The notes under the pieces are model-generated. The model worked only from the letters and a program-made list of their open reading frames with translations. It was not told the DNA's origin and did not search any database. Positions 14,899 through 63,822 of a DNA stretch of 64,000 nucleotides are shown one piece after another. The translations under genes were made by a program, and so were the position numbers. Each line of letters starts with the position of its first letter. Position 1 is the stretch's first letter. Source of the stretch: Nitrosopumilus sp. (GTDB lineage: Archaea > Thermoproteota > Nitrososphaeria > Nitrososphaerales > Nitrosopumilaceae); contig OZ240211.1 in assembly GCA_965197525.1 (NCBI GenBank), positions 192,001 through 256,000 of the forward strand, in the 5' to 3' direction.

Positions 14899-15568
14899 AA
14901 AACTAACAAACTGTTATCTATCAAAGAGAACACAATACATGCAAAAGCTGGTTTTCACAGAAATGACCGTAGAAAAAAAGGTCAATTCTGGAAGGTAAAA
15001 CAGCAAAGAATGGCCAATAGAACAAAACAATACATACACAAAATATCAAAAGATATTGTGGATAATGCCGTTAGTAAAAAGGCTGTAATTGTGTTAGAAA
15101 ACTTGAAAGGAATAAGAAAATTGTACAAGAAAGGAAATGGTCAAGGCAACAAATACAGACGTAGATTGAATGGCTGGCAATTCTACGAGTTACAACGCCA
15201 AATAGAATACAAAGCCCAATGGGCCGGGCTCCCACCAGTAAGATATGTAGACCCAAAAAACACGAGCACGCAATGTCCAAGATGCGGAAAGGGACTCCAA
15301 GAGGACATGCAACACAGACGTAAAATGTCGTGTAATAATTGTGGATTATACATGGATAGAGACATTGTAGCTTCCATGAATATATCTCGCAAACTGTCCC
15401 CTAGGTTTAGGGATAGTAGAGTTGGCATAAGTGAAGCGCAGTCTGACGTTTTTGAGTCAGCGATGATGGAACCCTGTATACCGGTAATCCAGATAGTCGA
15501 TATGTCAAAGTCCAGTGTTCTGAGTGATTGTTATTGTTAATAATACCACTCGTGAATGCAACAGAACC
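14899..15568 (+). mobile_element. tnpB: 5'-truncated TIR-bounded tnpB element (copy 1)
   Basis: tnpB sequence (KTNKLLSIKENTIH...) starts immediately after the ISH3 TIR and the reading frame runs to 15540. Right end is tgcaacagaacc (reverse complement GGTTCTGTTGCA). Left end is missing. Confidence 0.85.
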
Positions 15569-15612
15569 GCCTAATCCAAGAGCTTAAATATATTCAGAGA
15601 ATGTTGTTTTTT

Positions 15613-15828
15613 ATGCCAGAGTTACGACAAGTTGGTACCTCAAAGAAAGATGTCTCAAAGCTAGCAATATTTGTACTATCAGTCGCGTTTCTTGTAGGCA
15701 TGTTTGTTGCAGCTTTTGATCAAGGTCATATCTTTAGTCTAGTGTATGGTCAGGAAGCATTTCTTGATCCCTATCTTCATGAGCTCTTTCACGATACAAG
15801 ACATGCAGCAGGTTTCCCCTGTCACTAG
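15613..15828 (+). CDS. cbtB: Cobalt transporter subunit CbtB-like
   Basis: One TM helix and the C-terminal HELFHDTRHAAGFPCH motif. The ATG at 15613 is more likely than 15556, which lies inside the IS end; TATA-like cttaaata about 25 nt upstream. Confidence 0.85.
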   Translation: MPELRQVGTSKKDVSKLAIFVLSVAFLVGMFVAAFDQGHIFSLVYGQEAFLDPYLHELFHDTRHAAGFPCH

Positions 15829-15840
15829 GAATTTTACATA

Positions 15841-16554
15841 ATGAAAACACATATTTTTCTAATTATTGTCATACTTTCAGGCGCTGCATCTGGTCTGATT
15901 TACGGGGCTGTCAACTATGTAATTGTAGAACCATACCTTGATCAGGCAATCGGACTTGAAAATCAAAACCTGTTTGATTTAGGCATAGAGGAGAATACCC
16001 TTGCATTTCAAGCAAATCATGAAGAGTATAGAACATGGCAAAAGAGCGGACAGATTCTTGCAAGTGTAATTTTGGGAATTTCGATTGGCTCATTGTTTGG
16101 AATTGTGTTTGCATTGTCTAGAAATTCGTTACCTGGCAGTCATCATGTACATCGTTCTCTTTTATTATCCGTAGTAATGTGGTTTGCCATATATTTAATA
16201 CCATTTCTAAAATATCCTGCAAACCCTCCTACAGTTGGAGAGACTGAGACTATATTTTTGCGTACCATCTTGTACATATCGTTTGTTGCTATATCCGGCG
16301 CCGGGATAATTATTTTTTATAAACTATCCAAAAAGATTAATAAAAAATTTTTGGCAGTATGTGGTTATGCGGCATTAATAATCGCAGCATTCATCCTTAT
16401 GCCTGAAAACCCTGATGCCATATCTGCTCCCATGACCCTTGTAAACGAGTTTAGGCTAATGTCTCTCCTTGGAATTTCATCACTTTGGGTATCTCTTGGA
16501 GTAATATTTGGTCTTTTGTGGAATCGACTGGAATCTCCTAATGTGAGTATCTAA
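15841..16554 (+). CDS. cbtA: Cobalt transporter subunit CbtA-like
   Basis: Multi-TM protein with the LKYPANPPTVG motif, adjacent to cbtB. Confidence 0.85.
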   Translation: MKTHIFLIIVILSGAASGLIYGAVNYVIVEPYLDQAIGLENQNLFDLGIEENTLAFQANHEEYRTWQKSGQILASVILGISIGSLFGIVFALSRNSLPGSHHVHRSLLLSVVMWFAIYLIPFLKYPANPPTVGETETIFLRTILYISFVAISGAGIIIFYKLSKKINKKFLAVCGYAALIIAAFILMPENPDAISAPMTLVNEFRLMSLLGISSLWVSLGVIFGLLWNRLESPNVSI

Positions 16555-16601
16555 TAGTGTTCTAACTCTCTAGAATGAGAACACTAATTAAATAGGCGTT
16601 A

Positions 16602-16946
16602 ATGTATTGTGGATACATGTCAAGAAAGTTAACTCTACCTCAACTAAAAAAATACGATATTACTCAAAAAGTAATTGAAGCTCTCGCTGATCCTGAATCT
16701 CGTGCAATTCTTTTCACTATTGTTAAGAAAGGTAGTACTGCAGCAGAACTCTCATACAAACTTAACATACCATTAAGCTCTGTATATAAAAAATTAACCG
16801 ATCTCCAAGAGCTAACATTAATCGAGGTTGAAAAATGGATGTTGTCTGATAAAGGCAGAAAATACAAGATTTATCGCAGTAGAATCAGCAAAGCTGATGT
16901 CTCAATTCGAAAGCCAGAACCTGTTCTTACGCTAGTTCCGAACTAA
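16602..16946 (+). CDS. ArsR-like winged-HTH transcriptional regulator
   Basis: ALADPESRAIL...AAELSYKLNIPLSSVYKKL...GRKYKIYRS. Confidence 0.85.
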   Translation: MYCGYMSRKLTLPQLKKYDITQKVIEALADPESRAILFTIVKKGSTAAELSYKLNIPLSSVYKKLTDLQELTLIEVEKWMLSDKGRKYKIYRSRISKADVSIRKPEPVLTLVPN

Positions 16947-16948
16947 GT

Positions 16949-17308
16949 GTGGTTTTGTTGCAAAAACCTTCCATTATTCAGTTATCTGAGTTTGACGTTA
17001 CACAAAAAATTATCGAATCTATTAGTAATGTTTGTACACGTTCGGTATTGTTTTCCATTAAAACCCAATCAAAGGATGCAACAAATATTGCCGACGAGTT
17101 AAACCTCTCCCTTTCCACCGTCTACAAAACTCTCTCCAATCTTGAGACTCTTGCATTAATTGAGATAGATAAATTTACCATATCTGACGAGGGCAAAAAG
17201 ATCAAACTTTACCGTAGTAGGATAAGAAAGGTCGAGATAACTCTGGATGCATTTGAGCCCGTCTTAAACCTGTACACTAACACCATAAATCCAAAATCCG
17301 ATCCTTGA
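16949..17308 (+). CDS. ArsR-like winged-HTH regulator (tandem paralog)
   Basis: IADELNLSLSTVYKTL...GKKIKLYRS, same pattern as the preceding ORF. Confidence 0.85.
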   Translation: MVLLQKPSIIQLSEFDVTQKIIESISNVCTRSVLFSIKTQSKDATNIADELNLSLSTVYKTLSNLETLALIEIDKFTISDEGKKIKLYRSRIRKVEITLDAFEPVLNLYTNTINPKSDP

Positions 17309-17407
17309 TTACTTTTGTTTGCATTATCAACTGGAACAGTGCCTGGTAAACTCAAAACCGAATTTTCTATTTCTGTATTTTAGTTGCGTGTTATTTAAAA
17401 ATCCCAG

Positions 17408-18436
17408 TTACGTTGTAATCTCTTTTAATTGCCCGGTTTGCATGGCGCAGTTTATCTCTCTTGCCATTCTTCTTCCCATGCTCATGGGTTCATTATACAA
17501 CAATGCATAGTAGGGCGATGAACCGTCCATGTAGATGTTTGTTCCTGCAACAATTCTTGCTGAGAATTCAAACGATGTGAATTTTGCATCTTCATCATAT
17601 ACACCTTCTATGCAGAACGGCCCATTCATACCGGGTGGTACTATACGCTTTGCGGCCTCTACAAAGTTCTCTCCCATAGAGTACACCTCATCTAGCAGAG
17701 ATTCTCTTAGAATCAGCGGACTGTTTCCAATAACGTTAAAGGATGGAACTTTGTCTGTTTTTAGCTGTTGCTCTGCTGGAATCCTTGCTAGTCCTTCGAT
17801 ATCTGACTCGTGTCTCTGATCACATCCGAAAAACTCCAACTCGTCTTTTAGCGGTGAATAAAAGAACTGTAGATATGCTAGTACACCTGCTGAGTATTCT
17901 TGAATGTATAATGGTTCATCCCTTGATATTATTCCTTTGGATATTAGCTGATCTCTTTTTGTATTGTAATCGTTTTTACTAGAGGCCATAAAATATCCTT
18001 TTCCTCCTGCAGCGCCCTGTCTTTTGACTATGACTAGTCTGTCAATGTTGTCGGGACCGTCTATCTGTTTTGGAACAGGCAACCGTGCTTTTTTCATGAG
18101 TTCTTCTTTCTTGCCTCTGTCTGCCTCCCAACGCAGAATCCATCTGTTACCGAAGATGGGCGTCTTTATGGATTCTATCTCTTCTGAATCCATCTGTGCA
18201 ATCAGCGTACCGTGTGGGATGAGAACTGCATCTCTCTCTTTGAGTACTGACTGGCACTTTTTGTCTAGTATCTCTCTGAACGAGTCTACAAGGATTAATT
18301 CGTCAATAAATGGAAATCTTTTATATAATTTTTCACGCTTTTTCTCGCATACTAGGATGGTGTTTAACCCTTCATCTTTTGCTCCTTTTAGAACCTGTAA
18401 AGCACAATGGGAGCCTAACGTTGCGACTGATGTCAT
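17408..18436 (-). CDS. purP: FAICAR synthetase PurP (ATP-grasp)
   Basis: TLGSHCALQVLKGAKDEG start, GGKGYF, GPFCIE, FEFSARIVAGTN. Confidence 0.9.
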   Translation of the reverse strand: MTSVATLGSHCALQVLKGAKDEGLNTILVCEKKREKLYKRFPFIDELILVDSFREILDKKCQSVLKERDAVLIPHGTLIAQMDSEEIESIKTPIFGNRWILRWEADRGKKEELMKKARLPVPKQIDGPDNIDRLVIVKRQGAAGGKGYFMASSKNDYNTKRDQLISKGIISRDEPLYIQEYSAGVLAYLQFFYSPLKDELEFFGCDQRHESDIEGLARIPAEQQLKTDKVPSFNVIGNSPLILRESLLDEVYSMGENFVEAAKRIVPPGMNGPFCIEGVYDEDAKFTSFEFSARIVAGTNIYMDGSSPYYALLYNEPMSMGRRMAREINCAMQTGQLKEITT

Positions 18437-18468
18437 ATCTTGTTAATTTGAACTCGGTTATTTTGTAC

Positions 18469-18678
18469 TTATGAACTATGTGCAGATGTTACATATTGGA
18501 ATATCTCGTCAATTAGTTCCACGCTCAGCTCTGACTTTATGTCCTCTGGAATCACTTTTAGCACAAAACTGTACATTGTTGTATCTTTGGGGATTTGGTT
18601 GTTCTCATTTAGTAATGAAAATACTGCAATACCGTTTGCAATTATTGCTATTATTTTATCTCTGTCAGATAGGGCCAT
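18469..18678 (-). CDS. Small hypothetical protein
   Basis: 69-aa ORF just upstream of purP on the same strand. Confidence 0.65.
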   Translation of the reverse strand: MALSDRDKIIAIIANGIAVFSLLNENNQIPKDTTMYSFVLKVIPEDIKSELSVELIDEIFQYVTSAHSS

Positions 18679-18770
18679 GATGATGAATGCTAATTATTAT
18701 GTTATTTTCTTGTTTTTATATAAATTTGATTTGACGTCAATACATCATATGATGGTATCTTGATGTGGAA

Positions 18771-20102
18771 GGTTCTGTTGGGCTAACGGGTGTTGACTGC
18801 TGAGGATCATGTCAGATTCCACAACCATCAACAACACATTGACTACTCGACTTTGACATATCGACTATTCGGATTACCGGTCTGCAGGGTTCCGCCATCG
18901 CCGGTTCAAAAACACCGGACTGCGCTTCATGTATGCCATCTCTACTATCTCTAAACCTAGGAGACAGTTTGCGTGATATGTTCATGGCAGCGATGATATC
19001 CCTGTCCATAAACAAACCGCAATTATTACACGATGATTTACGATGTTGTTGCATGTCCTCTTGGAGTCTCTTTCCGCATTGCGGACACTGCGTGCTCGTG
19101 TTTTTTGGGTCTACTGTTTTTACAGGTAGCCCGACCCATTGGGCTTTGTATTCTATTTGTCTTTGTAGTTCAAAGAATTGCCATCCGTTCAATCTACGTC
19201 TGTATTTGTCGCCTTGACCGTTTCCTTTTCCGTACAGTTTTCTAATTCCCTTTAGATTTTCTAGAACAATGACAGCCTTTTTCTTGACTGCATTGTCTAC
19301 TATGTTTTTTGAGATTCTGTGTATGTACTGTTTTGTTCTGTTTGACATTCTTCTCTGTTTTTCTTTGTAGAATTGACCTTTCTTTCTTTTGTCGTTTCTA
19401 CGGAAACTGGATCTGGCATGTATTGTGTTCTCTTTGATTGAGAGTAACTTGTTGGTTTTGTAGAATGTTACCTCTTCTTCATTTCCGCATGTGACGTTTC
19501 TAAGGTTTCTGTCTACTCCTACTGTCTTGGCGCACTCTATCTCCTGTACTTTTTTTGAAATACAAAGACTGATGTTGAGAGCAGTCAATGAAAACGAGCG
19601 CACTGCCAAGGCGGGATCCGACAGTATTTTTTGAGTATGTTCGTTGAGTAGGATGTTAATTGGATTTCTTGGCTTGTATGGAATTGTGAGTAAGGCGCCG
19701 TTGTGTTTTATACGGTAACAATTAGTGATAAACGGATTTTTGATAATTGGATCTTTTACTTTGAGGCCACGTTTGACTGACTGATCTCTGTTTGCCAGGA
19801 TGCCAGCAGCTCGTGATATTGCATTGAGTTTGTATGAAGATAGGATGTCGTAGTGACGTAATTCGTGATAGCATAACATAGACAACCGTTTCATGTTGTG
19901 GGTATCTTCCTTTAGCCCTATCTTGATACAACGGTTAACCATGTCTGTGAACGTGATCATCATGTCCATTAGGTCAGAGTTTGGTGTATGTTTTTGTGCT
20001 ATTGACTTTATTGCTCTCAACAAGTATTATACGGTTTAAGGCTATCTATATTTAGTGTTATGAGTATAATTTCTGATCAACACCCGTTAACCCAACAGAA
20101 CC
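18771..20102 (-). mobile_element. TIR-bounded tnpB-only element (copy 2, 1332 bp)
   Basis: 26-bp TIRs ggttctgttgggctaacgggtgttga / tcaacacccgttaacccaacagaacc (1 mismatch). 8-bp TSD atgtggaa / atatggaa (1 mismatch). Confidence 0.92.
18812..20023 (-). CDS. tnpB: TnpB-like RNA-guided RuvC nuclease
   Basis: RuvC-I GVDRN, RuvC-II VLENL, Zn finger CPQCG...CNNCG, RuvC-III DRDIIAAMNI. Confidence 0.92.
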   Translation of the reverse strand: MLRAIKSIAQKHTPNSDLMDMMITFTDMVNRCIKIGLKEDTHNMKRLSMLCYHELRHYDILSSYKLNAISRAAGILANRDQSVKRGLKVKDPIIKNPFITNCYRIKHNGALLTIPYKPRNPINILLNEHTQKILSDPALAVRSFSLTALNISLCISKKVQEIECAKTVGVDRNLRNVTCGNEEEVTFYKTNKLLSIKENTIHARSSFRRNDKRKKGQFYKEKQRRMSNRTKQYIHRISKNIVDNAVKKKAVIVLENLKGIRKLYGKGNGQGDKYRRRLNGWQFFELQRQIEYKAQWVGLPVKTVDPKNTSTQCPQCGKRLQEDMQQHRKSSCNNCGLFMDRDIIAAMNISRKLSPRFRDSRDGIHEAQSGVFEPAMAEPCRPVIRIVDMSKSSSQCVVDGCGI

Positions 20103-20276
20103 ATATGGAATATACATTAAATATGCATCATTGCTCAATGTCTCTAACTCTATGATCGTCGATGAGTGTCCCTTTATTTCGTCTGTCTCTTGTGATTGTT
20201 CCAGTGATACATGGTATCCAACATATGCACCGGTGATGATAAACGTCGTAATCACAAGACCAATTAACAGATTCAT
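20058..20276 (-). CDS. Small membrane protein whose C-terminus is replaced by the tnpB element end
   Basis: N-terminal TM helix; codons after YIPY come from the TIR. Empty-site reconstruction ends ...YIP(Y/H)QDTII* at 18744. Confidence 0.55.
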   Translation of the reverse strand: MNLLIGLVITTFIITGAYVGYHVSLEQSQETDEIKGHSSTIIELETLSNDAYLMYIPYGSVGLTGVDQKLYS

Positions 20277-20436
20277 CGCTTTTGTGCAAGTTTGACTGCC
20301 TATAAATATTATGAAATTTTTTATAAAGTTCGATCAGTCGTATTACACTAGTGTATTGACATCTGAGTTACCACCTGCATTGTTGTTAGAGCAGTTATTA
20401 TGTCTGGTTTGTTAGATTTAATAATTACTTTTAACC

Positions 20437-23025: not shown

Positions 23026-23235
23026 ACCTAACTTGACAACTAGTTGAAAACAGTTGTAGATTTAGTAGTGTAACAGGCACGTCCTTCTCTAATCGTGTCT
23101 CGAATTATCCCAAATCCCTCCAAACAATCGATAAACTATACCTGAAAACTATTTTACACGTCTAAATGCAGAGTATTTGCTAAAAATTTCTTCAAAAACA
23201 AAAGGATTAAACCATGATTACCAGTCAATTACACT

Positions 23236-24843: not shown

Positions 24844-26318
24844 ACCTCAATGTATCTGCTCTTGAATTTGTCCAAGAAGCCAAGTTAGGAAACATATCAG
24901 TTGAGGATTTTGTTGCAGAAACGGTTCAGAGAATTCAGAATGTGGATGATACACTACATGCATTTTTGTCTCTGAATGACGACGCAATTAACCAAGCTCA
25001 AAGTATTGATAGAAAGATAAGATCTGGACAAAACGTAGGTGCTTGTTTTGGCATGCCTGTCTCCATTAAAGATAATATATGCATTAAAGATTCTAAAACT
25101 ACATGTGCCTCTCGTATGTTAGAGGATTTTGTTGCGCCATATGACGCTACAGTGATAACCAAGTTAAAAGACAATGACGCTGTATTTGTTGGCAAGACAA
25201 ACATGGACGAGTTTGCCATGGGAATAAGCACCGAGTTTAGCGCATTTGGTCCAAGCAAAAATCCTTGGAATCCAAAATACGTTCCTGGCGGTTCATCAGG
25301 CGGAAGTGCAGTATCTGTTGCTGCATTAGAGTGTGTTGCGTCATTGGGTTCTGATACCGGTGGTTCTGTTAGGAACCCTGCAAGTTTTTGCTCTGTGGTA
25401 GGATACAAACCAACATACGGCTTGATAAGCAGGTACGGGTTGATATCATACGCTAACAGCATTGAGCAGATAGGTCCCATTACTCGAACAGTAAAAGACG
25501 CTGCATTTTTGTTAAATATTATATCAGGTTTGGACTCTAATGACGATACCACTGCTGTGTGCCGTAGTCGTGATAAAGATGGTGGTACCGGTAATACGTC
25601 TCATGATTACCTGTCAGGAATTGACTATGATATTACAGGCACAAAAATAGGCATAATTTCTGATATGATGGGTGATGGAATAGACCCTTCAGTACTATCT
25701 GCAACACGAGATGCCATATCAGCGTTAGAAGGGCTGGGCGCTGTATGCCAAGAGATATCCTTTGATATGATAAAATACTCAGTAGCTGCTTACTATATCA
25801 TTACTTCAACTGAGGCCGGAAGCAACCTTGCTAGATACGACAATATTAGATACGGTTATGATCTGTCTCTAGAGGGCTACGAGTTTAACTCTTACATTAC
25901 AAAGGCTAGGGCAAAATTTGGAGACGAAGTTACAAGACGAATAATTCTTGGAGGATTTGTACCATCAGCAGGACATGCAGGAAGATATTTTTTAAAAGCA
26001 CTCAAGGTAAAACAAAAGCTTACAGAAGAGGTAAATCAAGCATTCAAGAATTTTGATATATTAATTGCACCAACTGTCCCTATACTGCCATTCCAACTAG
26101 GTGAAAAGATAGACGATCCACTATCCTTGTTTTTACTTGATATTAATACCGTAACTGCAAATCTTACCGGCAAGCCATCAATATCTGTGCCATATACACA
26201 TTCAAATGGTCTGCCAATAGGCATTCAATTGATTGCTGATTCTATGCAAGACAAGATGTTACTCCAAGTTGCAAATGCATTAGAGGGAACAACAAAATTA
26301 CCAGAGGTCCCGCTATGA
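24840..26318 (+). CDS. gatA: Amidotransferase subunit A
   Basis: Amidase signature PGGSSGGSA, LGSDTGGSVRNPA. Confidence 0.96.
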   Translation: MNLNVSALEFVQEAKLGNISVEDFVAETVQRIQNVDDTLHAFLSLNDDAINQAQSIDRKIRSGQNVGACFGMPVSIKDNICIKDSKTTCASRMLEDFVAPYDATVITKLKDNDAVFVGKTNMDEFAMGISTEFSAFGPSKNPWNPKYVPGGSSGGSAVSVAALECVASLGSDTGGSVRNPASFCSVVGYKPTYGLISRYGLISYANSIEQIGPITRTVKDAAFLLNIISGLDSNDDTTAVCRSRDKDGGTGNTSHDYLSGIDYDITGTKIGIISDMMGDGIDPSVLSATRDAISALEGLGAVCQEISFDMIKYSVAAYYIITSTEAGSNLARYDNIRYGYDLSLEGYEFNSYITKARAKFGDEVTRRIILGGFVPSAGHAGRYFLKALKVKQKLTEEVNQAFKNFDILIAPTVPILPFQLGEKIDDPLSLFLLDINTVTANLTGKPSISVPYTHSNGLPIGIQLIADSMQDKMLLQVANALEGTTKLPEVPL

Positions 26319-34172: not shown

Positions 34173-34215
34173 AATACTTGGATTATATCACGATAACTAA
34201 AGCTTTACGTTGCTA

Positions 34216-35521
34216 GGTTCTGTGAAATTATAGAGACCTTACTTATGAGGATAGGCGTACATAAATGCCCCAAAATCATAGAATATTTGTTGAAGGCAAT
34301 AAAGTCAATAGCACAAAAATATACGCCAAACTCTGACCTAATGGATATGATGGCCACATTCACGGACATGGTTAACCGTTGCATCAAGATAGGGTTAAAA
34401 GAAGACACACACAATATGAAAAGGCTATCATGTCTATGCTATCAGGAATTGAGAGACTATGACATTTTGTCGTCATACAAACTAAATGCAATATCAAGAG
34501 CTGCTGGCATATTGGCAAACAGAAGACAGTCAATAAAACGTGGTGTCAAGGTTAGATACCCAAAGGTAACAAAGCCGTTTATCACTAATTGTTACGGTAT
34601 AAAACACAATGGTGCACTACTTACAATCCCATACAAGAGTAGAAATCCAATCAACATCTTGTTAAACCCGCATACCCAAAAAATCCTGTCAAATCCTGCC
34701 TTGACAGTACGCTCGTTTTCATTGACTGCCTTTAACATCAGTCTTTGTGTTTCCAAGGAGACTGAACAGATAGAATGTACCAAGGCAGTAGGAATCGATA
34801 GAAATTTGAGGAATGTTACATGTGGCAATGAGGAGCAAGTAACATTTTACAAGACAAACAAAATACTATCCATAAAAGAGAACACCATGCACGCCAGAGC
34901 CGGATTCCACAGAAATGATCGCAGAAAGAAAGGTCAATTCTGGAAGGTAAGACAGCAAAGAATGACCAATAGAACAAAACAATACATACACAGAATATCA
35001 AAAGATATTGTGGATAATGCAGTCAAAGAAAAGGCTGTAATCGTTCTAGAAAACCTAAAAGGAATTAGAAAACTCTACAAAAAAGGAAATGGTCAAGGCA
35101 ACAAATACAGGCGCAGATTAAACGGATGGCAATTCTACGAGTTGCAACGCCAAATAGAATACAAAGCCCAATGGGTAGGACTCCCACCAGTCGAATATGT
35201 AGACCCAAAAAACACGAGCACGCAGTGTCCAAGATGCGGAAAGAAACTCCAAGAGGACATGCAACACAGTCGTAAAATGTCGTGTAATAATTGCGGATTG
35301 TACATGGACAGAGACATTGTAGCTGCCATGAACATATCACGCAAACTGTCCCCTAGGTTTAGGGATAGTGGAGATAACATAGGTGAAGCGCAGTCCGGTG
35401 TTTTTGAACCGGCGATGATGGAACCCTGCATACCGGTAATCCAGATAGTCGATATGTCAAAGTCGAGTGATAGGAGGATATGACTTGTTAAATCAACAGG
35501 TACCTATAACTTCACAGAACC
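34216..35521 (+). mobile_element. TIR-bounded tnpB-only element (copy 3, 1306 bp)
   Basis: 24-bp TIRs ggttctgtgaaattatagagacct / aggtacctataacttcacagaacc (3 mismatches). Perfect 8-bp TSD cgttgcta (34208-34215 / 35522-35529). Confidence 0.94.
34287..35483 (+). CDS. tnpB: TnpB-like RNA-guided RuvC nuclease
   Basis: GIDRN, VLENL, CPRCG/CNNCG, DRDIVAAMNI. TTG start at 34287/34290 inferred from alignment with the other copies. Confidence 0.92.
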   Translation: MLKAIKSIAQKYTPNSDLMDMMATFTDMVNRCIKIGLKEDTHNMKRLSCLCYQELRDYDILSSYKLNAISRAAGILANRRQSIKRGVKVRYPKVTKPFITNCYGIKHNGALLTIPYKSRNPINILLNPHTQKILSNPALTVRSFSLTAFNISLCVSKETEQIECTKAVGIDRNLRNVTCGNEEQVTFYKTNKILSIKENTMHARAGFHRNDRRKKGQFWKVRQQRMTNRTKQYIHRISKDIVDNAVKEKAVIVLENLKGIRKLYKKGNGQGNKYRRRLNGWQFYELQRQIEYKAQWVGLPPVEYVDPKNTSTQCPRCGKKLQEDMQHSRKMSCNNCGLYMDRDIVAAMNISRKLSPRFRDSGDNIGEAQSGVFEPAMMEPCIPVIQIVDMSKSSDRRI

Positions 35522-35526
35522 CGTTG

Positions 35527-35883
35527 CTATACAGGTAAGATTACCTTACCCTCGAATTTTGGGATATTGTCATCTTGAAGTGCTTTTTCTATGACTTGTT
35601 TTTGTTGGACTGTGACTCCTTGGACTATGGTTTTAGATGATCCAGTCTTGTCAACTAGCGCAAGAATGTATCCGCTGCTGTCAGTTAGTACAAATCCAGA
35701 TGATTCATCAACAAATGCGTATAGATTCTCCTCGCCTACAGGGTTCCAGACCTTTGTAGTACTGTTATTGTTTGCCACTAGTGCTAGTGCAGGCATGGCT
35801 TTACCATCAGTCAGTGAATTAAGATATTCTCTTGCTGCGGCAACTCTTTTTTGGCCCAACTTTAATGCTTGAAAGTATTGCAT
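35527..35883 (-). CDS. Conserved hypothetical protein
   Basis: 118-aa ORF; its TAG stop lies inside the TSD. Confidence 0.7.
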   Translation of the reverse strand: MQYFQALKLGQKRVAAAREYLNSLTDGKAMPALALVANNNSTTKVWNPVGEENLYAFVDESSGFVLTDSSGYILALVDKTGSSKTIVQGVTVQQKQVIEKALQDDNIPKFEGKVILPV

Positions 35884-36535: not shown

Positions 36536-36538
36536 AAA

Positions 36539-37578: not shown

Positions 37579-37580
37579 TT

Positions 37581-51126: not shown

Positions 51127-51135
51127 ATTTATTAA

Positions 51136-51612: not shown

Positions 51613-51615
51613 ATT

Positions 51616-52153: not shown

Positions 52154-52258
52154 TAATATCCAACATGCTCTAGAATTTCACAACTTTACTGTACTACTAA
52201 TTCAGACATTAACGATTTAGTAAAATCAATTTTCATATACTCGAAAAATAAACCATCT

Positions 52259-52972: not shown

Positions 52973-52986
52973 TCAGATGTAAGATA

Positions 52987-53154: not shown

Positions 53155-53194
53155 TAACCTATTTTGATGCTTTTTTTGATAACATCACTCCTCA

Positions 53195-55472: not shown

Positions 55473-55777
55473 GTTTTGAATCAGAGCTATCATCAGGAAG
55501 GTTTTGCATTCCCTCCTGCATGCAATGTAAAAAAATTGTATGGCCTCCAACTGAGTTCTGTAATCGCTGTTTTGGCACCATCACACTAAAACACGGAGAT
55601 TTTGTAGGTAAGGTTGTGGAATTTTCAGAGTATCATGATCATTATTTTTGTGTAGTGGAATTTGAAGGATCTGTACAAGTGATGGCGAAGATCTCAAATA
55701 TGCCCATAGTTGGTCAGAGCGTAAAGATTGTACAATGCGGCATATCAGACGGAAATTATTTTTTCAATGTTGCTTGA
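55469..55777 (+). CDS. DUF35 Zn-ribbon/OB-fold thiolase partner
   Basis: CMQC...WPP..FCNRC; overlaps the thiolase stop. Confidence 0.85.
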   Translation: MSFESELSSGRFCIPSCMQCKKIVWPPTEFCNRCFGTITLKHGDFVGKVVEFSEYHDHYFCVVEFEGSVQVMAKISNMPIVGQSVKIVQCGISDGNYFFNVA

Positions 55778-56606
55778 ATTTTGTGTATATGTACGGGGTT
55801 TCAATCTTTTGATCAAATGTCCACACGGTTGGCAATGATATAACATCAATCACTTGTAGATTGTGTTTTTTTATCAGGGCGTTCCATCCTCCATGCTCTG
55901 AGCTGTTACTGGACAGATGTCTCTTTGTATTGGTCCCTGCAAATGTTATTGCCGTGTTGTCTTTGAGGTCTTTGATATTTTTTATCTTTTCAATTATGTT
56001 GTCTGCTAGGACATCTCCTCCCATCTGTGGAAGGCCACCTACAAAAAATATTGGATGTTCTAGCTTTAATTCTGTATAATCAAACTCTAAAGCGTCGGCG
56101 TTTACTGGATTAAAGTTTTGATGTGCCTGTTTAGCAATTATTTTTTGTAACTCTGTTAATGTGTCATCTATCTCTAGGCTGTATGTCGTTAATCCTAACA
56201 GGTGCCCGCAAAATGCAATTCGTCCATCTCCTGAGCCTATGTCGACTAATTCTGTGTATCTAAACTGCTTTGCAGCATATGCCATGATAAATGCCGACAT
56301 TATCCATGTAGGGTAAAACGGCTGGCAACTAGAACCGTGCTTGATACTGTTTAGCCAGTATTCGTTGATATCACCTTCGTATATGGTACAATCAATCCCT
56401 AAAATTTTTTGATTATAATGATTATAGTATATTGGATTTTTTTGAGCAAATCCATGCAATGATGCTAACAGACGCTCTGGGTATGGAAATTCTTTTGATG
56501 TTTTATTTGGAACCACTTCTTGAATATGCGCGTTGCCTACATAGTTTTCTGCAAAGTTCTGTTTTACGGAAATCAGAGTCTCTGCTTGATTATTGTTTTG
56601 TATCAT
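55764..56606 (-). CDS. Class I SAM-dependent methyltransferase-like protein
   Basis: LVDIGSGDGRI motif I, YSLEID. Confidence 0.65.
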   Translation of the reverse strand: MIQNNNQAETLISVKQNFAENYVGNAHIQEVVPNKTSKEFPYPERLLASLHGFAQKNPIYYNHYNQKILGIDCTIYEGDINEYWLNSIKHGSSCQPFYPTWIMSAFIMAYAAKQFRYTELVDIGSGDGRIAFCGHLLGLTTYSLEIDDTLTELQKIIAKQAHQNFNPVNADALEFDYTELKLEHPIFFVGGLPQMGGDVLADNIIEKIKNIKDLKDNTAITFAGTNTKRHLSSNSSEHGGWNALIKKHNLQVIDVISLPTVWTFDQKIETPYIYTKFKQH

Positions 56607-56638
56607 GGCTTTGATCTCTTATATGGGTTTGATAAACT

Positions 56639-58010
56639 GGTTCTGTCGAGTTAACGGGTGTTGACTGATGAGGATTCTATCAGCATCAAAACTCATATAC
56701 CTATTTCAACAGTGTTCATTAGGTAACACATTAACTACTTGACTTTGACATATCGACTATCTGGATTACCGGTCTGCAGGGTTCCATCATCGCTGACTCA
56801 AAAACGTTAGACTGCGCTTCACTTATGCCAACTCTACTATCCCTAAACCTAGGGGACAGTTTGCGTGATATGTTCATGGCAGCTATAATGTCTCTGTCCA
56901 TGAATAATCCGCAATTATTACACGACATTTTACGACTGTGTTGCATGTCCTCTTGGAGTTTCTTTCCGCATTTTGGACATTGTGTGCTCGTGCGTTTTGG
57001 ATCTACAAATTCGACGGGTAGCCCGACCCATTGGGCTTTGTATTCTATTTGGCGTTGTAGCTCGTAGAATTGCCAGCCGTTCAATCTGCGTCTGTACTTG
57101 TTGCCTTGACCATTTCCCTTTTGGTATAATTTTCTTATTCCTTTCAGGTTCTCCAAAACAATTATGGCTTTTTCCTTGACGGCATTATCTACTATGTTTT
57201 TTGAGATTTTGTGTATGTATTGTTTTGTTCTGTCAGTCATTCTTCTTTGTCTTTGCTTCCAAAATTGACCTTTCTTTCTACGATCATTTCTATGGAATCC
57301 GGCTCTAGTATGTATTGTGTTCTCTTTGATTGATAACAACTTGTTTGTTTTGTAGAATGTTATCTTTTCTTCATTTCCGCATGTGACGTTACGTAGATTT
57401 CTATCGATTCCCACTGTCTTGGTACACTCTATCTCTTCTGTTTCTTTCGAAACACAAAGACTGATGTTGAGAGCAGTCAATGAAAACGAGCGTACTGTCA
57501 AGGCGGAGTTTGACAGGATTTTTTGAGTGTGTTGGTTCAACAAGATGTTGATAGGATTTCCACGTTTGTATGGTATTGTGAGTAGTGCACCATTGTGTTT
57601 TATGCCGTAGCAGTTTGTAATGAATGGATTTTTGATAATTGGGTCTTTTACTTTGACACCACGTTTGACTGACTGCTTTCTATTTGATAATACTCCGGCA
57701 GCTCTTGATATTGCATTGAGTTTGTATGAAGATAAAATATCATAGTCTCTCAATTCGTGATAGCATAGCATGGATAACCGCTTCATGTTGTGGGTATCTT
57801 CCTTTAGTCCTATTCTAATGCAATGGTTAACCATCTTTGTGAATGTAACCATCATATCCATTAGGTCGGAATTTGGTGTATGTTTTTGTGCTATTGACTT
57901 TATTGCTCTCAACGAATATCTTCGGTTTAAAGTTATTTATATCTTGTTCAGAGGGATCTTTCTACCATGGAATCAAAATTTATTTCAACACCCGTTAACT
58001 TGACAGAACC
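56639..58010 (-). mobile_element. TIR-bounded tnpB-only element (copy 4, 1372 bp)
   Basis: 26-bp TIRs ggttctgtcgagttaacgggtgttga / tcaacacccgttaacttgacagaacc (1 mismatch). Perfect TSD gataaact (56631-38 / 58011-18). Confidence 0.95.
56731..57912 (-). CDS. tnpB: TnpB-like RNA-guided RuvC nuclease
   Basis: GIDRN, VLENL, CPKCG/CNNCG, DRDIIAAMNI. Confidence 0.92.
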   Translation of the reverse strand: MRAIKSIAQKHTPNSDLMDMMVTFTKMVNHCIRIGLKEDTHNMKRLSMLCYHELRDYDILSSYKLNAISRAAGVLSNRKQSVKRGVKVKDPIIKNPFITNCYGIKHNGALLTIPYKRGNPINILLNQHTQKILSNSALTVRSFSLTALNISLCVSKETEEIECTKTVGIDRNLRNVTCGNEEKITFYKTNKLLSIKENTIHTRAGFHRNDRRKKGQFWKQRQRRMTDRTKQYIHKISKNIVDNAVKEKAIIVLENLKGIRKLYQKGNGQGNKYRRRLNGWQFYELQRQIEYKAQWVGLPVEFVDPKRTSTQCPKCGKKLQEDMQHSRKMSCNNCGLFMDRDIIAAMNISRKLSPRFRDSRVGISEAQSNVFESAMMEPCRPVIQIVDMSKSSS

Positions 58011-58249
58011 GATAAACTCATTGTAATATTCTCACATGTTTTTGTCTACACGTCGCTCTTTTTCCTGCACTTCATAAAATGATCTGTTTCTGAGACGAGT
58101 CTTTGTACTTGATGGAATCTTCTATAATCAATTAACACCTAATCTTATGGATTTTGGGAATTCATCTTTGAATTATACAAAATAATCTTGTAAATTAGTG
58201 TACTATTTTATAATGATTATATAATTACCTTGATCTTTTATGTGACTGC

Positions 58250-58903
58250 ATGGTAAGAAAATATTTGACGCCAAAGTTCTTCTCATCAACTGTTATGGCC
58301 AAACCCTCTAGTAAAAAAATTCGCGTACAGAATCAGCGGTCTGCCCGTTTGCGTAGACAGCGAGGATATCACTGGGAGGATACAATCGTAAAGAGGTTCA
58401 ATGATCAGGACAATTGGAAAGCGTTTCGACTAGGATCTGCTAGTAATGCCTTGCCTGATATACTGGCAGTTAATACTCAAGCCAAGACGATATATACAAT
58501 TGAAGCAAAATCAGGCACTGGCACATCATTGTTTGTGCCTGCAGACCAGATTGAACGATGCATGCGTTGGGTTAAGACGTTTGATATTTACAAGAAGAGG
58601 AAGGTTATTCTTGCCTTTAAATTTCTCTCAAAGAAGCGGATTGATATAGATGTGTACCAAAGTCGTGAGTTGAGAGAATTTTTTAAGATCTGGGATGATG
58701 ATCGGGATATTACAGATTGTGTATGTAGTTACGATGGTAAGGTATCGATAAAAGTAGGTGGTATAGAAAAGACAGAGATCGCACTTAAGAGTGGCAAGAT
58801 GCCGTTTCAGATTAGAGGGGGGACTAAATCACTAAAACTGCCAACCAAACGGCTAAAGTATAAAAAAAAGATCAGAGATACCCGGAAAACTAATGCCAAG
58901 TGA
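58250..58903 (+). CDS. hjc: Archaeal Holliday junction resolvase-like (Hjc family) protein
   Basis: RGYHWED...LPDILAV...IEAKS PD-(D/E)xK motif; start may be 58295. Confidence 0.75.
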   Translation: MVRKYLTPKFFSSTVMAKPSSKKIRVQNQRSARLRRQRGYHWEDTIVKRFNDQDNWKAFRLGSASNALPDILAVNTQAKTIYTIEAKSGTGTSLFVPADQIERCMRWVKTFDIYKKRKVILAFKFLSKKRIDIDVYQSRELREFFKIWDDDRDITDCVCSYDGKVSIKVGGIEKTEIALKSGKMPFQIRGGTKSLKLPTKRLKYKKKIRDTRKTNAK

Positions 58904-58945
58904 GTTTCAAATCGTTTTTAAGTATAGTATACTAAATGATATTAG

Positions 58946-59410
58946 ATGCCCAAAGAAACAGATGATGATATTAAGATAAATACCGAACTAGACCCCAAGA
59001 TTACGGAATCATTACTAGAGACAGTATCTGATGCTAACGTTAACTCACGAATCAATTTTGAAGAGTTTACTGACGAACGTGTGCTGATAAGTCATGATGC
59101 CTTTGGCAAGAAACAGATGAAGATCAAAGTGTTGGAGGTATCTGACGAGATTCCTACATTACAATGGAAGTTTGGAGATCGTGTAAAGATCACAAAAATT
59201 CTTGTTACTGTAAAACATCTTACAACACAACAAGTTGAAGAAGCAGAGTTTGACATAGAGGCAATAGAACTCGAGATGGCAGAAAAGAGACACTATTCAT
59301 CTACGAATAGATGGATTCCTAAAACAGATATAAAAAATGGTTATGTGGTAGGATCAAAACATACTAGGTTGATAAGCGATGCGTCAGCATTAGACTATAT
59401 CGCATTTTAG
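58946..59410 (+). CDS. Conserved hypothetical protein
   Basis: 154-aa ORF. Confidence 0.7.
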   Translation: MPKETDDDIKINTELDPKITESLLETVSDANVNSRINFEEFTDERVLISHDAFGKKQMKIKVLEVSDEIPTLQWKFGDRVKITKILVTVKHLTTQQVEEAEFDIEAIELEMAEKRHYSSTNRWIPKTDIKNGYVVGSKHTRLISDASALDYIAF

Positions 59411-59626
59411 ATTTGTCTCAAACACATGATAGAATGTTTATTCATTTCATAGTTGCATCAACATTGCTGTAATTCTATTTTTACTCCATCTTGACTTTTA
59501 CTCTCAAATTAAATCTTGTCCATTTGTAGGAATATTCAAAAACAAACAAGCAAACAAACCAATTTTAAATCAATCTGGATGTCCTCAACGATAAAGTTTT
59601 ATGAATCAAATATGTGTTAATAGTGT

Positions 59627-60886
59627 ATGATAAATGATAAAATCATAATTGCGATAATTGTAGTACTCACTGGAATTCTTGGTGTCGTTGCCCTCTCTTC
59701 TGGAGCTGATATTGAAATTCTTGATGCGATTCCAAGGGATATACGCTCAATAACGCTAGATGGTGATGCTGCCTCTGCAGCTGTCGTAGATGAGATAATT
59801 GCAATGTATGATTCTGATAAAGAAGGTACTTTGGAGTATATCAATAATCTGGATTCAAATGATCCGTCATATCCATTCGTTATTGACGCGATACGGGGGT
59901 TAATCATAGCTCATGGTTCTGACTCTGACTTGACATCAACTGAATCTTTGATACCTCTTGATAGAGCTCACAAACCATATGCTGTAATACTAGATGAATT
60001 AATAGAACGAAGCACAGATACTAATGAATATAGGGGTGTTTGGGCAGAGTATGTATTTCTAAATCCTGAGTTGGGTCAAGATCAACTCAAACGTTCTTGG
60101 TTGGTGTTGCATGATGGTTACATCTTTGGTTCTGGGCATTACTACTCACCCGAAGCTAGGGCCCAACAAGAAGTTTCTTATGCAATTGAGTTGTACGACG
60201 AGATAGGCCGAGATGCATTTAAACGTATTAACACATTGTCGTTACAGCCCTACTCGTTTTATGCAGTAGTCATTGAGATAGATTCTTCCAAAGTTATAGC
60301 TCACGGTGCATTTCCTTATGAGAATGTTGGAGTCAAAGTAACCCAATCACTTGAAGGATTAAATGATTTAGATCATGATTCCTCTTTTTGGCTGTACGTA
60401 CAAAATAAGAATCCAATATCGGGGATTGTTGAGCAGAAACGTATTTGGGTAACTCCTCATGAGGGATATCTCTTCACATCTGGATATTATTATTCAGCTG
60501 AAGAAAAAGTCCGCGAGAATATTGAAGTTTTAGTTGATGCATACAAATCTAATAAAAAACAGGTGTTCGATGAAGTAAATGCTTTAAACTCTGTTGATCC
60601 ATACTATCCATTTATTTTAAATGCCACTACTGGAAAGATTGAAGCCCATGGCGCTTTTGTAAGTCGAATTGGGATTGATTCCATAATACTAAATGACGGA
60701 ACAGAGAGGTTATCAAAAGACATCCTCGATGATCTGTACAAGTATAACAGTACTTGGACTGATTACAAGTTTACAAACCCTAGCACAGGTGAATTAGAAC
60801 ATAAACGCACTTATTTGTACTTGCATGATGGATATGTCTTTGGTGCTGGATTTTATTATTCTGTATTTGGAAGCACTGCACGTTAG
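59627..60886 (+). CDS. Membrane-anchored protein with three single-Cache-like domains
   Basis: Signal/TM helix; three YPF...AHG...W..Y.F.NP..G....KR..L..HDGY.FGSG.YY units. Confidence 0.8.
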   Translation: MINDKIIIAIIVVLTGILGVVALSSGADIEILDAIPRDIRSITLDGDAASAAVVDEIIAMYDSDKEGTLEYINNLDSNDPSYPFVIDAIRGLIIAHGSDSDLTSTESLIPLDRAHKPYAVILDELIERSTDTNEYRGVWAEYVFLNPELGQDQLKRSWLVLHDGYIFGSGHYYSPEARAQQEVSYAIELYDEIGRDAFKRINTLSLQPYSFYAVVIEIDSSKVIAHGAFPYENVGVKVTQSLEGLNDLDHDSSFWLYVQNKNPISGIVEQKRIWVTPHEGYLFTSGYYYSAEEKVRENIEVLVDAYKSNKKQVFDEVNALNSVDPYYPFILNATTGKIEAHGAFVSRIGIDSIILNDGTERLSKDILDDLYKYNSTWTDYKFTNPSTGELEHKRTYLYLHDGYVFGAGFYYSVFGSTAR

Positions 60887-61356
60887 AATACATTTTCAAG
60901 ATTTATCTGTGTCCTGTCGTTTGACGTCATTTTATCAACACATTAATGTTAGTACACATTGAGATTAGGCTCATAGATTGTAGATGTCATAAGTGTAAGG
61001 TCATTTTTTACCCAAGTTTATCTAATTGTGCTAGTTGGGGTTACTAAAAATTTAGCGATAATTACGACTAGTATCAGTTGTTATGAACGTAGACGCCGCT
61101 GGTTAAAAACGAATATAATAACACGTATTCTTATATACATATTTTTAAGAACGTTATAGTCTAATTTTAGAGCATGGTTATTTTTGTAGTTATGCAAAAA
61201 ATTTAATCATGCTAGTCAAAAGCACTACGCTGATATTAGTTTAGGCTCTTCACACATAATTGAAGAAAGATACTTAAACTATGAGAAATTATTTTGGTTA
61301 GGAATTAGCAATCATGTATAATAATAATAATAATACAGAAAAGTTAAAGATCCACT

Positions 61357-62175
61357 TTGGGACTGTTGGCTATGATTGAATTTGATCTCTTTATTCTTGG
61401 TATAGTTGGCTTTGGATTAGGTTGGGCAGTTGGCATGTCAGGATTAACTCTTACATCTGCCCGTTTTTTAGCAGTAGCTACTATTGAATTTTCCATACCT
61501 ACAGCAGTTGGTACAGCTATTGGTGGGACTACATTTAGCATGATACCTGCTGCGCTAAATTACTACAAGACGCGCAGTATTCATACCAAAATATTTGCTG
61601 TAATGGTACCTCCAGGTGTCGCCGGCGCCATCTTGGGGGCACTGTTTATCAGTTTTATTCCTAGTGCTGTCATTATAGCAGTAATCACAGTCTTGATGGT
61701 GTATGGTCTTGTAAGTCTATTGCGTAGTAAAACAATAAAACATGGTGGAGTTCAAACTGTATTACACAAGTATCAATACATCCGAGAAGGTATTGTCGCA
61801 TTTGGATTAGGTTGGCTTGTTGGCATGTTTGGAGTGCTGCTTGTAAATGTAAGATTGCTATCAATGATGGACAAGTTCAAAATCGGGCCAAAAGTTGTAA
61901 TTGGGACTAGTATAGCTATCTCATGTGTTCTCGGATTGACATCCTTTGCAGGGCATACTATTCTTGGTAACGTGAACTTTTTGTTGTTATTTGTTCTAGC
62001 TAGCACTGGGATGGTGGGAGGAATAATTGGCGCTAAATTTACAAATCGCATGAGTCAAAAAAAGTTAAAGATTATACTGATTATCCTATTTTTGTTTATA
62101 ATCAGTTACCTGCTCTTTATGTTGACTAATGTGTTGTTACGACCATCTGTCATTAATTGTAGCACATGTTTCTGA
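61357..62175 (+). CDS. TauE/SafE-family exporter
   Basis: Eight-TM pattern, AVGTAI and VIGTS repeats. Confidence 0.8.
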   Translation: MGLLAMIEFDLFILGIVGFGLGWAVGMSGLTLTSARFLAVATIEFSIPTAVGTAIGGTTFSMIPAALNYYKTRSIHTKIFAVMVPPGVAGAILGALFISFIPSAVIIAVITVLMVYGLVSLLRSKTIKHGGVQTVLHKYQYIREGIVAFGLGWLVGMFGVLLVNVRLLSMMDKFKIGPKVVIGTSIAISCVLGLTSFAGHTILGNVNFLLLFVLASTGMVGGIIGAKFTNRMSQKKLKIILIILFLFIISYLLFMLTNVLLRPSVINCSTCF

Positions 62176-62251
62176 ATATGGAGATTATGTCAGTAACTGT
62201 GCCAACGCAGTCATGATCTGATTAACAATTCGTACTAGTATTAGGATTTAG

Positions 62252-63539
62252 GGTTCTGTGAAGTTATCGGGGGTTATCTGTTAATCCCTAAATTGTATAA
62301 ACCTCTAAACCGTAAGATATTCGTTGAAAGCGATAAAGTCAATATCACAGAAATATACGCCAAACTCTGATCTAATGGATATGATGGCCATATTCACAAA
62401 GATGGTCAATCATTGCATCAAGACAGGATTGAAAGAAGACACTCACAATATGAAGAGGTTGTCCATATTATGTTATCATGAATTACGTAATTATAACATC
62501 CTGTCTTCATACAAACTAAATGCAATATCACGAGCTGCAGGCATGTTATCAAACAGAAAACAATCAATCAAACGAGGTGTCAGAATAAGAGACCCAATAG
62601 TCAAAAATCCCTTTATGACAAACTGTTACGGCATAAAACACAACGGTGCACTATTAACAATCCCATACAAGAAACATAACCCAATCAACATTTTACTCAA
62701 CGTTCACACCCAAAAAATCCTATCTGATCCCGCCTTGACGGTGCGCTCGTTTTCATTGACTGCCCTCAACATCAGTCTTTGTGTTTCAAAAACAGTACAA
62801 GAGATAGAGTGCACCAAGAAAGTGGGAATAGACAGAAACCTAAGAAATGTGACGTGTGGGAACAAGCAAGAGGTGACAGTCTACAAGACAAACAAACTGT
62901 TATCCATAAAGGAGAACACAATACACGCTAGGGCAGGATTCCACAGAAATGATCGCAGAAAGAAAGGTCAATTCTGGAAACAAAGACAGAGACGAATGAG
63001 CAATAGAACAAAGCAGTACATCCACAGAATCTCAAAGGATATAGTAGACAACGCAGTCAAAAACAAGACTGCAATCGTCATGGAAAACCTGAAAGGAATA
63101 AGAAAATTGTACCGAAAAGGAAACAGTCAAGGTAACAAGTACAGGCGTAGATTGAACGGGTGGCAATTCTACGAGTTACAACGCCAAATAGAATACAAAG
63201 CCCAATGGGTCGGGTTGCCTCCAGTCGAGACAGTAGACCCAAGAAACACGAGCACGCAGTGTCCGAAATGCGGAAAGAGACTCCAAGAGGACATGCAACA
63301 ACATCGTAAAATGTCGTGTAATAATTGCGGTTTGTTTATGGACAGGGACATCATCGCTGCCATGAACATATCACGCAAGCTGCCCCCTAGGTTTAGGGGT
63401 AGTAGAGATGACATAGATGAAGCGCAGTCCGGCACTTTTGAGCAGGCGATGACGGAACCCAGCACATCATTGGTAATCCGAATAGTCGATATGTCAAAGT
63501 CAAGTTATAGGGGTTAACCCTCGATAACTTCACAGAACC
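62252..63539 (+). mobile_element. TIR-bounded tnpB-only element (copy 5, 1288 bp)
   Basis: 25-bp TIRs ggttctgtgaagttatcgggggtta / taaccctcgataacttcacagaacc (1 mismatch). Perfect TSD ggatttag (62244-51 / 63540-47). Confidence 0.95.
62324..63517 (+). CDS. tnpB: TnpB-like RNA-guided RuvC nuclease
   Basis: GIDRN, VMENL, CPKCG/CNNCG, DRDIIAAMNI. Confidence 0.92.
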   Translation: MKAIKSISQKYTPNSDLMDMMAIFTKMVNHCIKTGLKEDTHNMKRLSILCYHELRNYNILSSYKLNAISRAAGMLSNRKQSIKRGVRIRDPIVKNPFMTNCYGIKHNGALLTIPYKKHNPINILLNVHTQKILSDPALTVRSFSLTALNISLCVSKTVQEIECTKKVGIDRNLRNVTCGNKQEVTVYKTNKLLSIKENTIHARAGFHRNDRRKKGQFWKQRQRRMSNRTKQYIHRISKDIVDNAVKNKTAIVMENLKGIRKLYRKGNSQGNKYRRRLNGWQFYELQRQIEYKAQWVGLPPVETVDPRNTSTQCPKCGKRLQEDMQQHRKMSCNNCGLFMDRDIIAAMNISRKLPPRFRGSRDDIDEAQSGTFEQAMTEPSTSLVIRIVDMSKSSYRG

Positions 63540-63822
63540 GGATTTAGTACTCAAACAGTGGGTGCACTATTAACCCCAATATAAGACAAGGATGGAAAAA
63601 CATGTTATCTGTTCTGATGAGTGTTAGACATTATAATACAGTCTAACTCTTATTTGTGACTTGTGTCCTAGGTTTTGTGGATTTATTGGGAATTTTTTGC
63701 TGTTTGATACCTGTTCATGCTTTTACCTTGCAACTGTCAATAGTATTTGTGCTGTTTTGTTATTGCCAAACATTGCACAATCTTTGGGTAATCTTTAGAT
63801 TAGACAAATCTCTAAAAATTAC

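Follow-up and report, generated by a model that had tools for sequence, protein, structure and literature searches.

A stretch of 64,000 nucleotides from a Nitrosopumilus sp. genome (GenBank assembly GCA_965197525.1, contig OZ240211.1, positions 192,001 to 256,000; hereafter the window, with position 1 as its first letter) carries repeated mobile elements that are bounded by terminal inverted repeats (TIRs) and contain a single gene, tnpB. These elements are best explained as non-autonomous derivatives of an IS6-like DDE transposon family that carry tnpB and its guide RNA (omegaRNA) and whose persistence would depend on a TTR motif (R, purine) on one side of the insertion, a reading to which we assign a probability of about 0.7. 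An earlier sequence-only reading of the window had proposed a non-autonomous DDE element, moved in trans, with tnpB as its sole and selected cargo; the ends, the empty sites, the ratio of nonsynonymous to synonymous substitution rates (dN/dS) and the lack of Y1 and serine transposases support that proposal, as set out below.

tnpB-only elements and their empty sites

The window contains the terminal sequence GGTTCTGT 11 times, whereas shuffles predict 1.8, and 10 of the 11 occurrences are ends of five tnpB-only units, four of them complete (1288-1372 bp) and one truncated, which confirms the sequence-only reading. The inverted ends of the complete units are 24-26 bp long, with a TIR identity of 21-26/30, and the 8-bp duplications are CGTTGCTA, GATAAACT, GGATTTAG and the pair ATGTGGAA/ATATGGAA, which matches at 7/8; all of them are the repeats that had been listed before. 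Each complete unit is filled by one open reading frame (ORF) of about 393-412 aa, with 12-92 bp between the tnpB stop and the right element end and no room for another gene inside, in agreement with the claim that no transposase is carried. A further pair of GGTTCTGT sequences, at window positions 25362/26783, was rejected as a chance pair with 17/30 identity and no duplication.

All five window ORFs match Pfam PF07282 (Cas12f1-like TNB; E about 1e-21), with an NCBIfam guided_TnpB score of 125 bits against a cut-off of 100, and the other window copies are 79-84% identical in protein sequence to the copy at 62324-63517. The RuvC triad and zinc finger had been described as intact, and the putative RuvC acidic motifs IDRN, ENL and DRD and both CxxC pairs are indeed retained in the window copies; the C-terminal half of TnpB aligns with solved Cas12f/TnpB chains over a region that spans the RuvC-II E and the RuvC-III D. 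The TTG start is conserved and is preceded by an A/T-rich, TATA-like stretch, which lies roughly 25-30 nt upstream. Among copies, dN/dS is 0.1-0.3 and not near 1 (0.12 between subfamilies and 0.27 over all within-subfamily pairs, with 0.30-0.40 for the closest copies), and tnpB is thus under purifying selection.

Empty alleles of two elements were available in run X5, a set of contigs from another study representing a strain roughly 93-95% identical. The X5 contigs skip both tested elements (56639-58010 and 62252-63539) and hold one copy of the 8-mer at each site, the outcome expected of true insertions by the sequence-only reading. At the first site, 79 nt of contig coincide, with no gap, with the sequence predicted for the empty site, and at the second the contig reads ATTA-GGGGTTAG-TACTCAAA. 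Same-genus genomes also lack the element at the syntenic locus, where the genes lie nearer each other by about the element length; the flanking genes there are only ~68-72% identical, at which the synteny is readable and the exact insertion sites are too diverged to align. Immediately to the right of element 62252-63539, the X5 strain is unaligned over ~230 bp (window 63548-63784) and alignment resumes at 63784, which is either a deletion or a divergent stretch.

The genome is a single 2.21-Mb contig with 39.6% G+C and 99% completeness, and related loci and protein names place it with Nitrosopumilus-type Thaumarchaeota, near sponge-associated metagenome-assembled genomes (MAGs). Sulfolobus ISC1316, considered at first, was set aside in favour of this placement. 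Genome-wide, there are about 33 near-full-length tnpB copies, of which 25 full copies are bounded by both ends and 17 of these 25 have perfect 8-bp duplications, numbers that exclude chance. The copies fall into seven subfamilies, with DNA identity of 70-84% between them and mostly 92-99.5% within them. Where a copy lacks matching duplications, recombination with another copy is the best explanation; in the related MAG OZ245003, the right-hand 8-mers of two copies (L033 and L034) are swapped (TAGAAACT/TTATGTTA and the reverse), each with TTR on its own left flank, which marks an inversion by such recombination. The same tnpB-only design is present in three other Nitrosopumilus-type MAGs, in other genera of the Nitrosopumilaceae at 47-60% protein identity, and in other families of Thermoproteota at ~30% protein identity as well as in metagenome contigs, and this TnpB clade occurs in 42 of 301 sampled genomes of the family.

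IS6-like transposases with the same ends

Neither Y1 TnpA (PF01797) nor a serine recombinase (PF00239) gave a match in the 99%-complete single-contig genome, while control genomes were positive. The IS6-type DDE domain, PF13610, matches eight stretches of the genome, seven of them over the cut-off, and all five transposase ORFs that were scanned exceed it (39-57 bits against 27), with a SWIM and/or other zinc-binding N-terminus joined to a DDE_Tnp_IS240 core. Transposase-bearing elements measure 1.9-2.8 kb and their transposases 374-460 aa. Several of the IS6-like transposases are intact and lie in elements of the same end family with 8-bp duplications. One of them, of 378 aa, is encoded by an element of 1970 bp whose 26-bp GGTTCTGT TIRs are perfect and whose duplication is CTATTGTG; this protein, the one tested against NCBIfam, has IS6 as its best model, at 103 bits and below the cut-off of 125.

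Elements with tnpB and elements with a transposase share an invariant first 8 nt at their ends and an 8-bp duplication, and many ends of either kind also contain an inner TTATCGRG-like block. The TIR of tnpB subfamily 6 matches the end of one transposase element at 24/24, as does the TIR of a miniature inverted-repeat transposable element (MITE) of this genome with that of a relative's transposase element, and the remaining tnpB subfamilies, apart from subfamily 1 (see below), match at 20-22/24. Of the 301 genomes of the family that were sampled, 117 have the transposase, and its elements in relatives have the same ends and 8-bp duplications. The two genes keep apart: at 155 tnpB loci, drawn from genomes as well as metagenomes, the element had no transposase gene inside or beside it save one short fragment (L044), and no tnpB was found in the 20 transposase loci examined. 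A DDE transposase with matching ends, as anticipated from the sequence, is therefore encoded in the same genome and in relatives. The assignment to IS6 stands for the ends, the 8-bp duplication and the DDE core, and has to be relaxed for the enzyme, which is IS6-like and not a canonical IS6 member. Given the matching ends, the matching duplication length and the lack of any other candidate enzyme, we consider it highly probable that the elements have this architecture and are mobilised in trans by IS6-like enzymes.

Outside the window, two further IS6-like elements (L048:1-4190, genome 699962-703151; L051, genome 919821-927614) have the same GGTTCTGT ends and carry an N6/N4 DNA methyltransferase and an HNH endonuclease beside the transposase, fused into a 475-aa ORF in one of them. 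This cargo within the same ends indicates that the end family also moves restriction-modification-like genes.

A covarying RNA module and a one-sided motif

Over the last ~100 codons of tnpB, the synonymous rate dS drops from ~1.2 to ~0.35 without a drop in dN. An alignment of the last 300 nt of 29 elements, which span 47-100% protein identity, gave an RNAalifold consensus fold of 25 pairs, 14 of them with compensatory changes, including a long-range helix that is wholly rewritten between clades (UGACAUA/UAUGUCA vs GCUUUCA/UGGAAGC). Paired cells amount to 97.8%, against 34-51% with slid partners, and the covariation score was reached by none of 500 shuffles; many of the double changes split just two clades, and independent events are fewer than the cell counts suggest. 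At gathering scores, Rfam returns a single tRNA for the window and none of the known omegaRNA families. The tnpB 3′ end and the right TIR together likely encode a covarying structured RNA, the putative omegaRNA. In the contigs of the sponge metatranscriptome run X6, 0.21 of the sampled words of window 62252-63600 are present, which hints that such elements occur in sponge-associated RNA samples and says nothing firm about expression.

Shorter derivatives retain this module. Elements of 0.2-0.5 kb in the genome share these ends, and several are flanked by perfect 8-bp duplications; among the short elements are MITEs of 378-497 bp that consist only of both TIRs and the last ~300 nt of tnpB, the covarying RNA module. 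Judged by what they keep, these MITEs look like guide-RNA-only elements for which TnpB might be supplied in trans. Decay is also uneven between the two ends. In decaying relatives, the right end remains ACAGAACC and the left end is often mutated; in many independent lineages (L065, L072, L077, L166, L169, L171, L173, L175 and genome position 678512), the left end is GATTCTGT or otherwise mutated with the right end still GGTTCTGT, and one G-to-A change, at position 2, is recurrent. Such left-mutated copies could be immobilised, with the right end retained for the RNA. The fall in dS, the covariation, the MITE module and the preserved right end together fit an omegaRNA scaffold that ends with the right TIR and would read its guide from the flank.

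When all copies were set in one orientation by their tnpB and the flanks compared, 29 of 32 left ends genome-wide had a T at -2 followed by R at -1, directly 5′ of the left duplication, against a background of 0.146 for this TR motif (binomial P about 2e-21); the three ends without it are at 189527, 296603 and 538186. The motif is present in 17/17 copies with perfect duplications, with T at -3 in about 70%, as well as in 12/12 copies from close relatives and most of the distant ones, at 5/5 unique metagenome sites with perfect duplications, and, as TTR, in both X5 empty alleles. MITEs retaining the RNA module have it in 6 of 8 cases (by eye), including all three with intact duplications. In transposase-bearing or cargo elements that have perfect duplications, its frequency is that of the background, 2/7 and 1/7 by orientation.

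The motif is one-sided and strictly oriented with the cargo: among bounded copies, it stands at the left end in 24/25 and in mirrored form at the right end in 6/25 (24%), a ratio that rejects a symmetric preference of the transposase as its source. A promoter supplied by the flank was likewise rejected, since 80-110 nt separate the motif from the tnpB start downstream of it, too great a distance for a core archaeal promoter. The two ends of the element are identical over 18-25 nt, so the transpososome would be blind to element orientation, which only the asymmetric cargo could reveal. In the empty alleles, the order is TTR, 8-mer, right flank, which fits a transposon-associated motif (TAM) placed before a guide target made of the duplication and the right flank. 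TTR-type protospacer-adjacent motifs are known for some Cas12f enzymes. That the motif is linked to TnpB seems to us somewhat better than an even proposition, and its position and order suggest that TTR is likely the TAM of this TnpB.

Positions of the elements and of the associated features are collected in Table 1. Upstream of the truncated tnpB copy, a 1692-aa ORF with a TTG start (window 9039-14117) ends ~770 bp away.

Table 1 Elements, duplications and candidate motifs, in window coordinates unless marked as genome coordinates
Feature	Position	Strand	Remarks
Complete tnpB-only element, subfamily 1	62252-63539	+	1288 bp; 25-bp TIRs
tnpB of this element	62324-63517	+	397 aa; TTG start; stop codon within right TIR
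8-bp duplication GGATTTAG of this element	left 62244-62251, right 63540-63547	+	Single copy in X5 empty allele
Candidate TAM TTA of this element	62241-62243	+	Directly 5′ of left duplication; also in empty allele
Candidate omegaRNA scaffold of this element	63240-63539	+	Last ~220-300 nt of tnpB and right TIR; guide would begin at 63540; dS fall, covariation
Complete tnpB-only element, singleton subfamily 4	56639-58010	-	1372 bp; tnpB 56731-57912 (-)
Duplication GATAAACT of this element	56631-56638 and 58011-58018
Candidate TAM ATG of this element	58019-58021	-
Complete tnpB-only element, subfamily 5	34216-35521	+	1306 bp; tnpB end at 35483
Duplication CGTTGCTA of this element	34208-34215 and 35522-35529
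Candidate TAM TTA of this element	34205-34207
Complete tnpB-only element, subfamily 2	18771-20102	-	1332 bp; tnpB 18812-20023 (-)
7/8 duplication (ATGTGGAA/ATATGGAA) of this element	18763-18770 and 20103-20110
Candidate TAM ATA of this element	20111-20113	-
5′-truncated tnpB copy	14887-15568 (ORF 15010-15540)	+	Residues ~184-395; intact right TIR to 15568
MITEs with RNA module (outside the window)	genome 143852-144348, 736087-736573, 803351-803738, 870887-871264, others		Several with perfect duplications and TTR

Mechanism, alternatives and known systems

From the one-sided motif, which is observed directly at the insertions, we infer a cycle of cleavage and homing. The tnpB elements would descend from an archaeal IS6-like DDE transposon family as non-autonomous derivatives that have retained its ~25-bp GGTTCTGT ends and, between these, tnpB and the overlapping omegaRNA alone. 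IS6-like transposases encoded elsewhere would bind the ends in trans and insert the element by an 8-bp staggered cut, more or less at random. The scaffold would run through the right TIR and take its guide from the flank, that is, from the right copy of the duplication and the sequence following it, and TnpB with this read-through omegaRNA would cut only those empty alleles that have TTR ahead of the duplicated 8-mer. Repair from the occupied copy could then restore or spread the insertion (homing or retention), and insertions beside TTR in the right orientation would persist and accumulate while others would not. In another archaeon, breaks made by TnpB have been shown to undergo homology-directed repair (PMC11043419), and gene-drive-like behaviour has been reported for an IS605 TnpB on plasmids, according to a citation in PMC13565253. 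The broader proposition, that TnpB determines the persistence or landing of DDE insertions that duplicate their target, with the 8-bp duplication as guide seed, the TTR TAM outside it, and homing or drive of a presumably replicative IS6-like TIR element, is in our judgement evenly balanced.

Several points weigh against this account. Classical IS6 transposes replicatively, without excision (PMC7986276), so that restorative homing of the IS605 type would not apply, and allelic homing requires a cell to contain two alleles, a state not known from these archaea. The control is small, with seven autonomous elements that have perfect duplications. Subfamily 1, the most abundant, has a best end match of only 18/24 among the sampled autonomous elements, and the transposase is only modestly enriched in genomes with this TnpB clade (about 22/41 vs 116/300 genomes). 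Finally, there are no identical copy pairs and the closest copies are only 99.5% identical, indicating that the burst was not very recent.

The main rival would fix TTR at insertion: TnpB-omegaRNA, bound to a TAM or scanning there, would mark the DNA or change its shape, and insertion by the DDE transpososome would follow alongside, a primitive target choice directed by the TAM and not by the guide. A motif that is nearly universal, at 29/32 left ends and at all perfect-duplication sites, is more readily produced by targeting than by sorting afterwards, given that no polyploidy is known for the organism; the motif also abuts the staggered cut exactly, and MITEs that have only the omegaRNA module show it as well. 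What such targeting lacks is an obvious orientation cue, the TIRs being identical over 18-25 nt, whereas homing-based sorting gives the orientation free; moreover, TnpB sitting on a TAM would probably block access to the 8 bp next to it, and this mode of insertion has no precedent. Directed insertion accounts for the near-universality of the motif and not for its fixed orientation, and we regard it as unlikely.

Still less probable is use of the ends by some other enzyme, IS1-type or unrecognised, with the likeness to IS6 due to convergence or to common descent without current cross-mobilisation. Such an enzyme would suit subfamily 1, which is without a close partner, and the 378-aa transposase does match the IS1 model (61 bits) and has a zinc domain of the IS1/IS1595 type; yet IS6 is its best model, PF13610 is above its cut-off, the invariant first 8 nt, the common inner block and the 8-bp duplication unite the two kinds of element, end matches reach 24/24 twice, and the ends of IS257 are GGTTCTGTTGCAAAGTT (PMC4856351). 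Very improbable is a reading in which tnpB has no function as cargo and the one-sided TR reflects the target preference of the transposase or landing in A/T-rich intergenic DNA. In its favour, the landing sites are A/T-rich and the mirrored TR (24%) is somewhat above the 14.6% background; against it, tnpB is under purifying selection, the RNA covaries and is retained in MITEs, the motif follows the cargo (24/25 vs 6/25), and transposase-bearing elements with the same end type show no enrichment of it.

Non-autonomous tnpB elements of this IS6-like kind, if so understood, have several known relatives. The association of prokaryotic TnpB with DDE transposons is already known in principle: six DDE-associated TnpB branches (DDE-1 to DDE-6) with inverted terminal repeats were described by Altae-Tran et al. 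in 2023, together with solo TnpBs that bear matching ends and probably depend on a transposase in trans (PMC10691335), and the DDE families concerned are ISL2, IS630 and IS1031, in an association called rare by a 2026 review (PMC13565253). These branches share with the present elements a TnpB between TIRs, a tnpB 3′ end <250 bp from the transposon end and solo copies with proposed movement in trans, and differ in that the partner here is IS6-like and outside the named families, that at the 155 tnpB loci examined no transposase gene beyond one short fragment accompanies tnpB, and that the tnpB-only state extends across a whole archaeal family. The hint of novelty in the sequence-only reading accordingly holds for the IS6-like partner, which is not among the named DDE families, and fails for DDE-linked prokaryotic and solo TnpBs as such, which were published in 2023 (PMC10691335). 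The main texts consulted on DDE-linked TnpBs make no mention of a one-sided TTR beside a variable 8-bp duplication.

With the IS6 family (IS26, IS257/IS431, ISS1), which follows a replicative cointegrate pathway, the elements share short GGTTCTGT-type ends, 8-bp duplications, which are an IS6 family trait (PMC7986276), the DDE_Tnp_IS240 core and MITE derivatives; the end of IS257 is GGTTCTGTTGCAAAGTT (PMC4856351). Unlike the IS6 element of about 0.8 kb with its single transposase, the tnpB elements are 1.3 kb long without a transposase and the autonomous ones 1.9-2.8 kb, and the transposases have extra SWIM and zinc N-terminal domains. A review of IS6 lists one passenger-carrying member, does not mention TnpB and has no thaumarchaeal group among its archaeal clades (PMC7986276). 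IS200/IS605 elements, by contrast, have no TIRs or duplications and use subterminal hairpins and a Y1 TnpA (IS1341 group and derivatives of the PATE (palindrome-associated transposable element)/MITE kind, PMC3119063). As in the IS1341 group, tnpB is here the sole gene, the putative omegaRNA overlaps its 3′ end, gene-less derivatives retain the ends and a short 5′ motif lies on the tnpB-upstream side; unlike in IS200/IS605, there are 24-26 bp TIRs, 8-bp duplications, empty sites with one 8-mer and no Y1 TnpA in the genome.

The TIR transposons of eukaryotes that carry Fanzor (PMC10530073, PMC13565253) are alike in bearing a TnpB-type nuclease as cargo of a DDE-type TIR element and a guide RNA that runs over the TIR into the flank. 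Their hosts are eukaryotic, whereas the host here is an archaeon, and their duplication is fixed (such as TA or TTAA) and read within the TAM, whereas here the duplication varies and the guide target would begin with its 8 nt, preceded by a TAM that lies outside. The TTR geometry is in this respect the IS605 logic (PMC13565253) moved onto an element with a variable duplication.

What appears new is the IS6-like partner and the strictly non-autonomous state across an archaeal family and beyond, together with the guide-RNA-only MITEs and the way in which TTR, duplication and guide are arranged. The accepted role of TnpB is that of a maintenance nuclease for IS200/IS605 and IS607, whose transposases insert beside the TAM and excise scarlessly. 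RNA-guided homing or drive with a TIR DDE element has, to our knowledge, been thought rare or of little use in prokaryotes. DDE transposons, according to a recent review, gain little from TnpB (PMC13565253). The insertion sites described here are a natural experiment on this question, since copies with the nuclease module lie beside TTR on one side and transposase-bearing sister elements do not. The IS6-like family is extended by them to derivatives that carry cargo or only a guide RNA. Should TTR prove to be the TAM, TnpB-driven homing or retention would work with variable target duplications, the function of solo archaeal TnpBs would be testable by a simple assay, and a compact archaeal nuclease with a short TAM would become available.

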